Below, in pieces: positions 37,118-51,700 of a stretch of 64,000 bases of DNA. Below the pieces are notes generated by a model. The model searched no databases. It saw only the letters and a list, made by a program, of their open reading frames with translations, and was not told the DNA's origin. The translations under genes and the position numbers were made by a program. The stretch is from Eledone cirrhosa (lineage: Eukaryota), in contig OZ024742.1 of the NCBI GenBank assembly GCA_964016885.1, positions 5,766,001 to 5,830,000 of the forward strand. Reading direction: 5' to 3'. Within the stretch, counting starts at the first letter, position 1; each line of letters begins with the position of its first letter.

Positions 37118-39845
37118 GTACATGATTGGTAGACGTGTATTACTTCGCTCCGGACTTTTTACGGATTATTGTACAAAAAACTGTGAGTTTATTGTTGAAT
37201 TTGTTATTATTGTTTAGTTTAACCCCTCGTCTGGGCCTTCAGACGTTGGGTTAACTAATTTTCGCCCCTTTATGGGGCGAAATTTTCATCTGAAAAATTT
37301 GTGTAGACTTGTTATTTAGTAATGGATGCCATTTCAACCTCTCACACTGTAGTGAGTGCCACGCCCACTAAGATAAGTGGTGGAGGGAAGGTAGGAGTAC
37401 AAAGCTTGCAGCCTTCCCCCTCACCTTATCGAGAAACGTTGTAAACGTTAACATGATACAAAATATTGTAACCACGGAACCAAACCCGGTAAATAGTACC
37501 AGCACCAACAACAACAAGAATGACAATAACACCACAACCAACAACTGTAACAATAACAACACCAACACCAAGGAAAATATGAACAACATCAACCAATAGT
37601 GACAACAGCAACAACAGCAACAAGAAAGACAACAACACCGAAACGTCGTTCGCACAAACTGTAAAAAAAACAGAACTATACACTCCAATTGACATCTCTA
37701 ACGCAAAACAGCTACACCAAGATGCAAAACAATACGTAACTTTTGGACAAAACGGTGCTTTTAGCATCAATTCTCCCCAGGTATTACGTAGACAGTCTGT
37801 CCTGAAAACTGTGGTTTTGAGGACAATATCAAACGCAACTAGAAAACCAGCTCAATTATCACAAAATGAAATTGAGCTGGTTCTAAAAGATGCAATGAAG
37901 GACATAACCTTCATCCAAAGAGGAAAACTGTTTGGTAGCATTTCGGTGCTAATGAATGACCAACCAACGGCACAAAAATACGCTGTATCACCCATTGAGT
38001 CCCCGCTTTTCACCTTTTTCTCCACATACAGGGGAAAAAGGACACAAAAATAAAAATTATGAGTATCACACCAAATGTAAATATTTGGTGGATGCTATGT
38101 GGATTCATTGATTTTGATGAAGACAGAATAATCTCAGTAGGAAAGTCCTCCAGAGGTGTATTTAGTGGGACTAGCGTAGAAGTTCTTCTGGTGCAAATGA
38201 TCCCAGAACGAATAGCTACAATCCCATAACGCGTGCCCCTGGACGGGCTAACCTACATAAACATTTCGGTTGAGGGTAGGTGGCCGTCATGTCACCACTG
38301 CTTAAGCAGGGGTCACCTGAGGGCTGCCTGTCCTCAATTAACGAGTAAAAAAAAAGGCTCTTCTGCCAACCCCGAACACAACACAACCACCACCACAACA
38401 ACAATAACAACACCAAACACAGTCCCACCCAACCCTTCCCCACCCAAAACAACTCCAAAAACACCCATACGCATAACAGATCCCCAAAATGTACCCCTCC
38501 CCAATCATACAGATGCCACAACGGATGAGGCCCTCTCATCATCACTGGGTGATGATGAGGGGGAACCCCTCCGCGCAAAAAGAAAAAAAAACAGAGACAT
38601 AACACGAACAAAAAGACAACAAACGCACAACCACCAACACAAACAACACAAACATTACAACCTCCCCCCCCTCCCCTCACCTGAAAATTAAAACACCCAC
38701 AACAAGGAGAAAACACGCACAAGAACAACAAACAAAAACTAACACAACACAACAAAAACAGTACACATATATAAACACAGACAATAACATTTTAATGCAG
38801 GTTATAACCAAAGACCCTTTTACCTGCTCGTGGGAAAAACCTAATCTTAAGATGATTAGGATCCCGATAGACATATGTAAACATTTAAAAGAAAACTTTC
38901 CAAACGACGTAGGCAACCCCTGTGTCAAACCTTACAACCGATTCCTGTTAAAAGGTTTCCCCACCCCCACCCCAGACACCCCCGACACCACCAGACACCC
39001 CCTCCCCACCAAACATCTCCGTCCCCACCCCGCCAGAAACCACCACCCCACCAAACAACCCCTCCAACACCCCCATGGAAATTGTGCAGCCTGGTCCCCA
39101 GGAGACGAAGAGGTAAGTGATTTCTTTTCCGCTTCTTTTAAATTTTCAGCATCAACATGGCCAATATACGAGTTGGATGTGTGAATGTACGCGGCCTGGG
39201 GATGCCCTGGAAACAGGACAAACCCTTAAACGACCTCAGGTCGCACAGTATGGATGTGGTAGCCATTTGCGAGACAGGATCCATAGCGAGCGGCAACTGG
39301 CCCCCATCTTCGACGACTTTGAGATCTACGCATCTCTCTGTCAGCCGGGAGGTGGGGGTGGGGTTGCCGTTTTGCTGCGGAAACACCTGGACCTCGTAAC
39401 ACAGACGGTACATCTGGACACGGAGGGTCGACTGGTGGTCCTAGACGTTGACGGTAGTGAAGGTGGAGCCTTCAGGCTGGTGGCCGCATATGTCCCATCC
39501 GGGACACCGCGGCCAGACTTCTTCAAACGTCTAGAAACTTTTCTGGCAACGTCCCGCTCCCTGCTGTTAGTGGGGGATTGGAAGGGAATCCTAGATGCAC
39601 GTTGGGACTATGTAGGGAGCATGTCCCGTTAGAGAGGGGTGCAACAGCCTCAGACAGTTAATCGGCCGATTTGACCTGGCCGATAGATATCGACTAGATT
39701 TTCCGACTGTGCCACTGTGGACGTGAACTAATCGCTGCGGAACATCTAGATCGTACCTAGATAGGGTTCTAGTTAGAAAGAAGGATAGCGACATGTTAAT
39801 CTGTCCACAAATGTTCATGGTTGCCTATTCAGATCACAAACTAGT
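37118..39845 (+). mobile_element. 5' half of a Tx1-like LINE (5' UTR, disrupted ORF1 with zinc knuckle, APE domain), broken at a (TA)n tract
   Basis: ORF1 from ATG ~37322 with CHHCLSRGHLRAAC; ORF2 ATG 39157 MANIRVGCVNVRGL...ICET...GGGVAVL...LVGDW...SYLDRVL...SDHK. Confidence 0.9.
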
Positions 39846-40340
39846 ATATATATATATATATATATATATATATATATATATATATATATATATATATATA
39901 TATATATATATATATATATATATATATATATATAGAGAGAGAGAGAGAGAGAGAGAGAGAGAGAATTTATAGAAGGTCTGCGATCCGGGGACCGGGAAGA
40001 CCACCAACCAAGTAAGTACTCGATACATGGTATGATTTAGGGAGAGTATATGCACACACACACACACACACACACACACACACACACACACACACACACA
40101 CACACACACACACACACACACACACACACACACACACACACGCACACACACACACACACATATATATATATATATATATATAAACACACTAAGAAATACA
40201 TATATTCGCAGCATTCACGCACAGATTCATACGCACACACACACTTACGCAGTCACACGCACACACACACACACACACACACAGACACACACAGACACAT
40301 ACACAGAGAGAGAGAGAGAGACACACACACACACACATTC
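39846..40340. repeat. (TA)n(GA)n and (CA)n microsatellite cluster
   Basis: Direct reading. Confidence 0.9.
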
Positions 40341-48751: not shown

Positions 48752-48775
48752 ATTATTATTATTATTATTATTATT

Positions 48776-51700
48776 GGTCTAAGCGGACGTATTTTTCTCG
48801 CTCACAGTAAGTCGCTTTATTTGCCTGTTTAAATTATTTCTTGTTAAATATTTCTTGTTGTGTAAGGGATATAAGCCCTTAGACTTTGCCCCGTGAAGGG
48901 GAAAGTATAATATTTGGGCCTTTTGGCCCAAATATTTGAACTATTTTTTACATGTTAAAAAATTTACGAAGAAAAAAAAACATGGCTGAGCCACGCCCCC
49001 AGCGATATGTCGGCTGTCGTGCAACAACGACGTAGAAGTTGAGAGGAGCGCTACAGCGAAATGAACACAAATTGATAACACAAACACCACCACAAACAAG
49101 GTAAACAAAGACACCAATGATACCAATAAGAACTCTAATTTTGAAAAAAATGACAGTAACAGCGACAACGAAAATACAGATAACAAAAAAAAAATAACAA
49201 ATACAACAACAATATCAACACCACTAACATGAAAACACATAGCGACAAAACCAACAGCAACAATACCAACTGCACCGAGAACAACGGTGGCAACAAAGAC
49301 ATCAATGATAACAGCGACAGTGCTAACAACAACACCAACAAGAACAACGTCAACAACACCCCCAACGAAAACCAGAAGAACACTTTCGCTGCGGCAGCAG
49401 CAAAACAGAGGCCATGCTTCAATATGGACCTCTCAAACAAAGATGAAAAGTTGGCCCAGGCATGGAAGCTCATCAAGCAGAGCAAACTTGGGCCAACTTA
49501 ACTGTCCCGGTAGAAGCTATTGAGGCAGTGGAGCGCAAAACGGTGCATTATAGATGCATCTCAGCACAAACCAAAAGGGCAGCGTTAATCCCACAAGAAG
49601 ATGTCGAAGTCGCGCTGAGGTGCATCAGAGAAGACACCCAGTACATAGAGAGGGGCAGACAGTACGGCACCATTTCGGTGTTGTTCAAGTCAGAAGCCCT
49701 CGCTATGAAACACGCTATGACTCCTTGCAAAACCAGCAAGGTCATAATGTACCCCTCCCACATGAGAAAAAGAACGGCCCGTCTCCGGATTCCCAGAATC
49801 CCACCAGGACTTGACATGTGGTGGCTTCTGGGATGTGTGATTGTGGAGGGGACGGATACAGTCCCTATAGGAGTAACCAGAACGGCCAGAGAGGACTGGT
49901 CCGGGGTTGACCTGGAGATCCTTCTCCAGATCAGGCCCGAGAATGTGAAGACAATCCCAGACCACATCCGCCTTCAGAATGGGACTGTCATTTACATTAT
50001 GACCGAAGGCAAAAGGCCGCAGTGTTTTGTTTGTGAGGAAAAAACCCATTTGCGAGCCTTCTGCCCTCAACTGCTGAAAGAGGCAAGGGGTTGAAAGGCT
50101 CCACTGCTGCCGACGCCGGGGCGAGGACCACAACCAACACCTGCACCGGCAAAACCACCAACAACAACACCAATAGAAAGACCACCACCAACATTGACCA
50201 CCCAGGGGGGGAAAGGAGGAAAGCTGTCAAATTCCCCCCCCCCCAAATACACACACAAATAAAACCTTAAACATACATACAGACACACTTACAGACACAG
50301 ACCCCTCATCTACCAGTAGTGAAAATGAGGGAAATCCAAAATCCCCCAAAATACAAAAAAGGAAACACAAAAAGAAAAAAAAACTCAACAAAGCACAAAA
50401 GCACCCACAATAAAAAACGCAGACACCACCCACGCAAACATCTCTCCAATAACACCAACATCAACACCACCATCACCATCACCAGAATCCCTCAAACGCA
50501 AACAACCGAAACAGACGCAAGAACAAATATACACACAAACATCTGAAACCACAGACACCGCACTCACAACAAACACAGATACAACCGAAACAACACCACC
50601 AAAACCATCACCACCACAGCCACGCAAACAAATAAAATCACATCAACAAAACATACAAAACTTCGTTCTCGTCAGGAGGGCCAACAAGCAACTGATGGCC
50701 CTCGTAGCACGAAGTGAAAATATACAAAAAGAGGGGGAAATTTTAAAATCGAGCACATTTCGCGTGCCGGAAGATTTGGTTCTGGTGCGAATGTCGCTCG
50801 ACATATTCAAAGAAATACGAGACAGCTTTCCTCGGAACGTGGGAACCCCGAACGTAAAACCCACTTCAAGACTTTTAAAGGGGTTCCCAAAAGAAACCCA
50901 ACTAACTATGGAGGTCGAACAACCCGACCTTCACAAGAGCCCGGAAGGTAAGTAAACCTTCCTCTCTCTCTGTTTAACCTGCCAACATGGCCGTATTAAG
51001 AGTAGGATGTTTAAATGTTCGAGGCCTGGGATCGTCCTGGAAGCAGGCTCATCTGCTCAACGACCTCAGGTCTATAGAAATGGATGTAATTGCAGTCAGC
51101 GAGACCAGGATTTCCGACACGCTCGCACTAGCCCCCATTTTCGACGACTATCAGATCTTTGTATCTGTTAGCCGGCCGGGAATGGGAGGCGGGGTGGCAG
51201 TGCTGTTTAGGAAAGGCCTGGATCTCGAGGTAAGCTCGATCTACCGGGACCCGGACGGGAAGCTGGTGGTCCTGGACGTGAACAATAATGAAGGTGGTGC
51301 CTTTAGACTGGTGGCCGTCTATGCTCCTACTGGGGCAGGACGGCCGGACTTCTTTAGACGCCTGGAAGCCTTTCTGGGAACGTCTCGCCCTTTACTGTTA
51401 GCGGGGGACTGGAACGGCATCTTAGACGCACGCTGGGACTGTGTGGGAGTATCCGATAGGAGCGAGGGGTGCAAAAGCCTCAAGAACCAGATCAGCCAGT
51501 TCCAACTGTCTGACAGGTACCGACTAGATCTCCCTAATGCGCCAGTGTGGACCTGGGCTAACCGCATAGGGTCATCTAGATCGTATATAGACAGGATATT
51601 CATTAGGAAAATAGACAGAAATAGTGTAAGCTGTCCACGTTTTGAAACAGTCGCCTATTCAGATCACAAGTTTGTGATCTGTATGGTTGACCTAGATAAG

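Follow-up and report, generated by a model that had tools for sequence, protein, structure and literature searches.

Why should three diverged retrotransposons carry the same 5′ splice-site consensus at the point where their first open reading frame (ORF) ends and their second is about to begin? The question arises in a 64,000-nt stretch of the Eledone cirrhosa genome (contig OZ024742.1, positions 5,766,001 to 5,830,000 of the forward strand; hereafter the window, with positions counted from its first letter), in which we designate as E1, E2 and E3 three copies of what appear to be L1/Tx1-type retrotransposons lacking long terminal repeats (non-LTR). The shared motif, AGGTAAGT, is a conserved 5′ splice-site consensus that lies on the ORF1 stop of one octopod-type lineage.

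A donor consensus on the ORF1 stop

The motif was found at 39111 (E1), 45070 (E2) and 50946 (E3), where it reads AG/GTAAGT, the donor consensus complementary to U1 small nuclear RNA (snRNA). It touches the ORF1 stop in all three elements: the plus-strand copies at 39111..39118 and 45070..45077 include the stop (TAA 39114-39116 in E1), and the last base of the copy at 50946..50953 is overlapped by the TAA at 50953-50955. ORF2 begins with the ATG at 39157, 45109 and 50987, which is 46, 39 and 41 nt from the motif and is preceded each time by CAAC, and pyrimidines make up 25 of 34, 23 of 27 and 22 of 29 spacer positions, respectively. An earlier sequence-only reading of the window had reported these positions and spacings, the CAAC and the pyrimidine-rich tract, all of which were confirmed. 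It was also right that an AG precedes the ATG in the first copy alone, but E2 and E3 have YAG trinucleotides (Y, pyrimidine) in ORF2 codons 4-7. On the plus strand, the E1 spacer (39119..39156) holds the candidate acceptor CAG at 39147-39149 ahead of the CAAC start context; in the E2 spacer and start (45078..45122, with CAACATG) the first AG is the CAG ending at 45122; and in those of E3 (50956..51005, again with CAACATG) an AAG ends at 51000 and a TAG at 51005.

The motif had been described as falling in three phases of the upstream ORF, of which we recovered only two, AGG TAA in E1 and E2 and GGT AAG TAA in E3. ORF1 accordingly ends in Arg-stop in the former two and in Gly-Lys-stop in the latter. 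For E1, the last 46 codons probably run in the AGG TAA frame, judging from their Pro/Thr-rich reading and from the resemblance of the final residues, MEIVQPGPQETKR-stop, to the MEVEQPDLHKSPEGK-stop end of E3. On this reading the frame changes near 38980 and E1 shares its phase with E2, leaving E3 as the second.

Across the window AGGTAAGT occurs five times against 5.4 expected, so that only its position carries weight. Among the three 103-nt stretches ending at the ORF2 ATG, it is the sole common 8-mer, besides the 7-mer CAACATG. This placement exceeds chance: of 20000 draws of random ORF1 triplets, 504 had any 8-mer in common, and 15 had one that contained both G and T. When the sense strand was scored against the nine-letter donor consensus, the motif matched the U2-type 5′ splice site at 8/9 in all three elements; no other sense-strand site reaches this score in E1 or E3, and one more does in E2. 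A second AGGTAAGT stands in E2 at 45377 and is absent from the matching place in E1 and E3. An Rfam search of 33000-56000 returned no matches, and the local hairpins that are possible around the motif were not significant (z -0.5, -1.5 and -1.6).

Conservation of the motif and its lineage specificity

The flanks of the motif had been called unalignable. This holds for the DNA, where blastn matches begin at ORF2, but not for the proteins: the ORF1 C-terminal domains of E1, E2 and E3 are homologous and their ORF2s form one clade. At four-fold degenerate sites of the endonuclease, 8 of 37 are identical in all three families, which is near saturation, and at those of the reverse transcriptase (RT) 39 of 61 are identical between E2 and E3. 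All eight motif letters are kept in all three elements, in E3 despite a stop shifted three bases on. Because the eight letters persist while endonuclease four-fold identity is only 8/37, the comparison supports selection on the nucleotides of the motif. The sequence-only reading had proposed such a constraint, and this part of its claim stands; frame-independence is weaker than it had claimed, because there are two phases and one ancestral origin, and because TAA supplies three of the eight letters in two families.

We then looked for the donor in other L1/Tx1-like elements. From 41 loci we obtained 24 ORF2 starts, or 22 after removing 2 duplicates, taken regardless of an upstream ORF1; three of them have no in-frame ATG, five have less than 500 nt upstream and eight come from one bin. 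No donor scoring at least 8/9 was found upstream of these 22 non-octopod starts within up to 500 nt, and a 7/9 donor was found at 5 of the 22 within up to 500 nt and at none within 60 nt. The donor is therefore lineage-specific and not a general Tx1 feature. The pyrimidine-rich spacers are less so: C and T fill 22-23 of the 30 nt ahead of the ORF2 start in the window and 11-22 in the controls. Dozens of prokaryotic genome bins carry such eukaryotic L1/Tx1-like elements (loci L002-L042), some of them clustered on single contigs (e.g., L006, L007, L012 and L015), and these are apparently host DNA contamination. A further locus, L001, which was the single metagenome match in a search for DNA relatives of the octopod families, proved to be a bacterial false match.

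Relatives of the octopod families at the DNA level were found neither in viral contigs, where an RT profile likewise returned none, nor in genome contigs. A protein search gave six distant ORF2 proteins, the best-scoring being 32% identical, and a profile of the ORF1 C-terminal domain returned only its three input proteins, with none among shorter proteins. Among the 150 ORF1 relatives listed of 223, nine distinct ones match the C-terminal domain (excluding the twin P0157 and one match with E = 0.3); their ends were judged from protein only and are indirect evidence for the motif nucleotides. Two of the nine have GK or GKS as their last residues, which GGT AAG T would encode; GK accounts for 0.6% of the dipeptides in these ORF1 relatives. 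One other has GK seven residues before its end, and another ends in W, which would fit only if encoded as TGG TAA. Two Octopus gene models, P0094 and P0134, seem to join a host protein to pieces of the ORF1 family, hinting at exonisation or mis-annotation.

Contigs from four runs of one study, whose type is unrecorded and which may derive from the window's own sample, were mapped on 44700-54690 and show very high copy numbers of these elements. The motif is also present in a sister subfamily whose upstream letters differ (loose end 45081, run X1, 10 contigs). In other copies the spacer has taken one-base insertions, behind 45077 (21-29% of depth) and behind 45101 (7-9%). Two contigs (records 25 and 30) span the E2 and E3 donors unspliced; the spacer is retained in the three window copies and in both bridging contigs. 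No joint starts at 45071 or 50947 among the 15 listed (3651 joints and 69 gap rows more were recorded); since these are a part of the joints and contigs drop rare variants, we take this as evidence neither for nor against splicing.

A probable U1 site that may guard full-length RNA

Because the motif matches the donor consensus and such matches are rare in the controls, U1 recognition is the likeliest cause of the constraint; taking all readings together, recognition by U1 in some form is probable. We tentatively favour the reading in which the motif binds the U1 small nuclear ribonucleoprotein (snRNP), goes largely unspliced in the RNA that serves as template for copying, and protects the full-length bicistronic RNA from premature polyadenylation, although we would put this at somewhat below even. 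It is preferred because of the objections to a fusing intron, the lack of a conserved distal acceptor, the failure of a known reinitiation signal and the non-significant hairpins, each taken up below.

Beyond the sequence pattern we infer each step as follows. U1 would pair with the donor motif at the ORF1 stop, and the pyrimidine run right behind the donor may aid its loading; TIA-1-type proteins assist U1 loading at pyrimidine runs. Once bound, U1 would silence poly(A) signals close by in ORF1, which is rich in A (the 5′ untranslated region (UTR) and ORF1 stretches are 36-38% A and hold 1-3 AATAAA each). ORF2 would be translated from its own CAACAUG by reinitiation past the 31-40 nt spacer, and splicing from the donor is predicted to be an occasional side route.

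Several observations weigh against such a guarding role. The copy at 45377 makes clear that AGGTAAGT can arise from G-K codons. The membership of E1, E2 and E3 in one clade means that theirs is a single inherited ancestral site, with one origin and not three. The ends of five of the nine ORF1 relatives, at least one of them incomplete, do not fit the motif, and two more fit in part. The number of AATAAA hexamers is by our estimate no higher than A-rich sequence predicts; they do not lie at homologous places, and ORF2 has no more than one per element, that of E2 (45711) reading G in nearly all contig depth. Finally, a fusing intron is favoured by the frame of the first YAG, which agrees with that of ORF2 in E1, E2 and E3 alike.

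Alternative explanations

That last observation belongs to the strongest competitor, in which a minority of transcripts is spliced from the donor to the first YAG, as a mini-intron like that of Ogre elements (PMC6317226), so that the ORF1 stop is removed and an ORF1-ORF2 fusion protein results. Such introns would measure 37 nt (E1), 51 nt (E2) and 58 nt (E3), all in frame with ORF2 and all containing the ORF1 stop. The chance of three in-frame YAGs is 1 in 27, under a rule chosen after looking. Moreover, donor and acceptor both move to phase 1 in E3, what remains of E1 contains no acceptor stronger than the CAG at 39149, and the spacer indels behind 45077 and 45101 would be intronic and harmless to the fusion. 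Against this, the introns would be very short (we found no figure for minimal intron size in cephalopods in the literature), and the combination of tract and YAG is good in E1, though at 37 nt only, and weak in E2 and E3, where the pyrimidine run lies beside the donor and not the acceptor (13/20 and 8/20). The first AG of any kind is in frame in two of three, the AAG of E3 ending at 51000 being out of frame, and the AG of E2 derives from a conserved Arg codon. The ORF2 start is itself conserved, both the AUG and its context (AACATG, as at the ORF1 starts), even though any fusing intron would include it in E2 and E3. If spliced RNA alone made ORF2, cis-preference would be expected to spread intron-less copies, and the spacer is kept in all copies seen. 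An endonuclease core is present in none of the 150 ORF1 matches listed, save one weak 19-residue match. It seems doubtful that an octopod LINE (long interspersed element) lineage makes its RT by regulated splicing of a 37-58 nt intron, with only unspliced RNA being copied.

A second competitor, which we regard as unlikely, takes the motif for a stop-context or termination-reinitiation element, or a protein-binding site, that serves ORF2 translation and resembles a donor incidentally. The motif overlaps the ORF1 stop, it is separated from the ORF2 start by a short stop-to-AUG interval of 31-40 nt that contains no further AUG, the start context is strong, local hairpins are possible around it, and reinitiation has been proposed for L1 and SART1 (PMC5972666). 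These hairpins are not significant, however; the stop-to-AUG frame varies (1, 0, 1), and an exact donor consensus would be an unlikely coincidence. The termination upstream ribosome-binding site (TURBS) is defined by an upstream UGGGA core and a stop no more than about 14 nt from the AUG (PMC5972666); here the core is absent within 100 nt upstream in all three elements and the spacers measure 31-40 nt, so that termination-reinitiation of this kind was rejected.

Splicing to a distant acceptor, in late ORF2, the 3′ UTR or a host exon, would instead yield an ORF1-only mRNA that gives excess ORF1 protein and is not copied in cis, as in the copia-like element EVD. A donor at the very end of ORF1 would keep the whole of ORF1, the exon junction would lie ahead of the new stop and might thereby avoid nonsense-mediated decay, and retention of the spacer in genomic copies is consistent with this; Drosophila copia, BARE1 and EVD offer precedents (PMC5580714). 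A simple scan for a tract plus YAG found a strong CAG at 41213 in one short 3′-end copy, but this AG is missing from E2 itself and no acceptor occupies a homologous place across E0 (a neighbouring truncated copy), E2 and E3. ORF1 also has its own stop and does not need splicing to end. We consider this route distinctly unlikely.

Passive inheritance, or protein-level conservation of Arg-stop or Gly-Lys-stop with no RNA function, is very unlikely. The three elements form one clade, the 8-mer is not enriched in the window, TAA accounts for three letters in E1 and E2, and E2 and E3 still agree at 39/61 four-fold sites of RT; yet the motif is read in two phases and so specifies different residues with identical nucleotides, the neighbouring bases have diverged, and the chance of keeping five free letters at 8/37 identity is about 5e-4 (a rough value from a small sample). 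Two further candidates were rejected: stop read-through or a fixed frameshift, as the stop-to-AUG frame differs between families and between copies, and a target-site remnant of Tx1 insertion at donors, as the motif is internal, at a homologous place, in elements that end in microsatellites.

Classification of the elements and other features of the window

The plus strand from 35400 to 54700 is a train of non-LTR elements, E0 to E3, in which stops and frameshifts break every copy. E0 (35423..36625), a 5′-truncated copy of a related family, sits between (TATC)n arrays and holds the 3′ end of ORF2 with zf-RVT, the ORF1/ORF2 junction being absent. E1 (37118-39844, 2.7 kb, cut off 3′) starts behind a (TATC)n array; its 5′ end and broken ORF1 (37118..39116) have a CCHC knuckle at 38290 and an ORF1 start that was not fixed, and its ORF2 endonuclease fragment (39157..39844) is terminated by a (TA)n array. 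E2 (42751-48750) begins behind an ATT array with its 5′ end and broken ORF1 (42751..45075; ATG 42964, CCHC 44117, stop TAA 45073-45075), and its broken ORF2 region (45109..48750) encodes endonuclease, RT and zf-RVT ahead of a U-rich 3′ UTR, an AATAAA at 48740 and an ATT tail. E3 (48776-54670, 5.9 kb) comprises a 5′ end and broken ORF1 (48776..50955; ATG 48982, CCHC 50023, last codons GGT AAG TAA) and a broken ORF2 region (50987..54670) with Exo_endo_phos, RVT_1, a U-rich 3′ UTR and an ATT tail.

The ORF2s matched the Pfam families Exo_endo_phos (5.6e-16), RVT_1 (7.7e-11) and zf-RVT (4e-7), and the nine PDB matches of the endonuclease all came from L1, being either endonuclease or ORF2 chains. 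A single CCHC knuckle is present in each ORF1, as in type I ORF1s, and Pfam found no RNA-recognition motif (RRM) in ORF1. Atlas look-alikes of the ORF1 relative P0019 were CCHC and ZCCHC3-like clusters, which we treat as a lead only. Both E2 and E3 adjoin (ATT)n and have it at their ends, and E0 and E1 lie at (TATC)n, so the window copies show the repeat-target preference that is a Tx1 trait. In an endonuclease tree of 27 rows (the frameshifted L008, L010, L033 and L036 omitted), E1, E2 and E3 formed one clade with support 100/100 on a long branch. Judged from these sequences the elements are L1/Tx1-type non-LTR retrotransposons and putative members of the Tx1 clade, the tree containing no named Tx1 reference; the annotation of O. 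vulgaris lists 80 L1-Tx1 families (PMC13282606). We call the lineage octopod-type because 11 of the 12 species-named matches, among 20 looked-up ORF1 or ORF2 matches, are octopod (Octopus sinensis, O. vulgaris, O. bimaculoides and Argonauta hians), the other being a plant CCHC protein.

At 48743-48790 the ATT tail of E2 passes straight into the E3 5′ end, so that the elements stack head to tail in one microsatellite. Short 5′-truncated 3′ ends of the TATC-type and E2-type families lie at 36640-36950 and 41100-41310, the latter being the copy with the acceptor-like CAG at 41213. Although these families are otherwise diverged, their five 3′ ends all share a CTATTG(G/A)GGA motif followed by a T-rich run (at 36489, 36795, 41150, 48608 and 54513) and a CCC..GTGG motif ahead of the poly(A) signal; both are candidates for an RT recognition signal. 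A fragment of another RT-encoding element lies between E1 and E2 in opposite orientation (41380-42690, minus strand). Farther away, the minus strand at 3936-5978 holds two ORFs of 521 and 155 aa, the longer with a weak RVT_1 match (E 0.0014), which looks like a Penelope-type RT; an unrelated AGGTAAGT, at 5069, runs antisense to it. Long satellite arrays occupy 15147-32427 and 55834-63988, with units of 26 bp (665 copies) and 49 bp (165 copies), and a TGG array (6318-8335) and a 15-bp array (10045-11920) give rise to spurious long ORFs.

Comparison with known systems

In the literature, of which subscription papers and Repbase reports were mostly beyond reach, we found no account of a splice donor on the ORF1 stop of either Tx1 or L1 elements. 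Kibi and Koshi, the microsatellite-targeting Tx1 families (PMC4494074), resemble the present elements in simple-repeat insertion, an endonuclease-RT ORF2 and a CCHC ORF1, but the targets here are (ATT)n and (TATC)n, and the accessible part of their description mentions no junction donor. Human L1 belongs to the same superfamily and likewise has a bicistronic RNA; its splicing, known as SpORF2 (PMC2896524) and SpIREs (PMC5860796), removes 5′ UTR or ORF1 sequence and gives dead-end copies, and LINE splicing as so far described in these sources harms the element. Inter-ORF spacers of vertebrate L1 are T-rich in fish, and an internal ribosome entry site (IRES) or reinitiation has been proposed for them in a paper whose accessible text does not mention splicing (PMC5381506). 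The donor motif bears on two general problems of bicistronic LINE biology, the dosage of ORF1 relative to ORF2 and the avoidance of premature polyadenylation by an A-rich RNA.

Ogre LTR retrotransposons splice out an inter-ORF spacer, 274 bp on average, and so make one polyprotein (PMC6317226). The spacer described here could likewise act as an intron, but splicing is demonstrated in Ogre, whereas our candidate introns of 37-58 nt are read from sequence. If true, a fusion intron would be the LINE counterpart of this strategy, with donor and acceptor shifting phase together, and a new answer to how LINE ORF2 is produced.

The closest parallels to a U1 site come from LTR elements and retroviruses. 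In EVD, an Arabidopsis Ty1/copia element, the donor at the end of gag both splices and blocks premature termination through U1 (Oberlin et al. 2017, PMC5580714). As in E1, E2 and E3, a conserved donor of U1-binding type stands between structural and catalytic genes, and the full-length EVD RNA is unspliced and depends on U1 against early termination. EVD is, however, an LTR element with one ORF, in which splicing to a defined acceptor creates the gag stop, whereas our elements are non-LTR, have their own ORF1 stop, a separate ORF2 AUG and no conserved acceptor, and are known from DNA alone. HIV-1 and foamy viruses suppress an upstream poly(A) site through U1 bound at the major donor (PMC12789967), with no need for splicing, as we propose here; their donor lies near the 5′ LTR and acts on one defined site, and ours lies mid-element with no single conserved target signal. 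Elements of such high copy number would seed strong donors genome-wide and could capture host transcripts. A selected U1 site at the ORF1 stop, if true, would be a case of a LINE exploiting the host spliceosome, convergent with plant copia elements and retroviruses.

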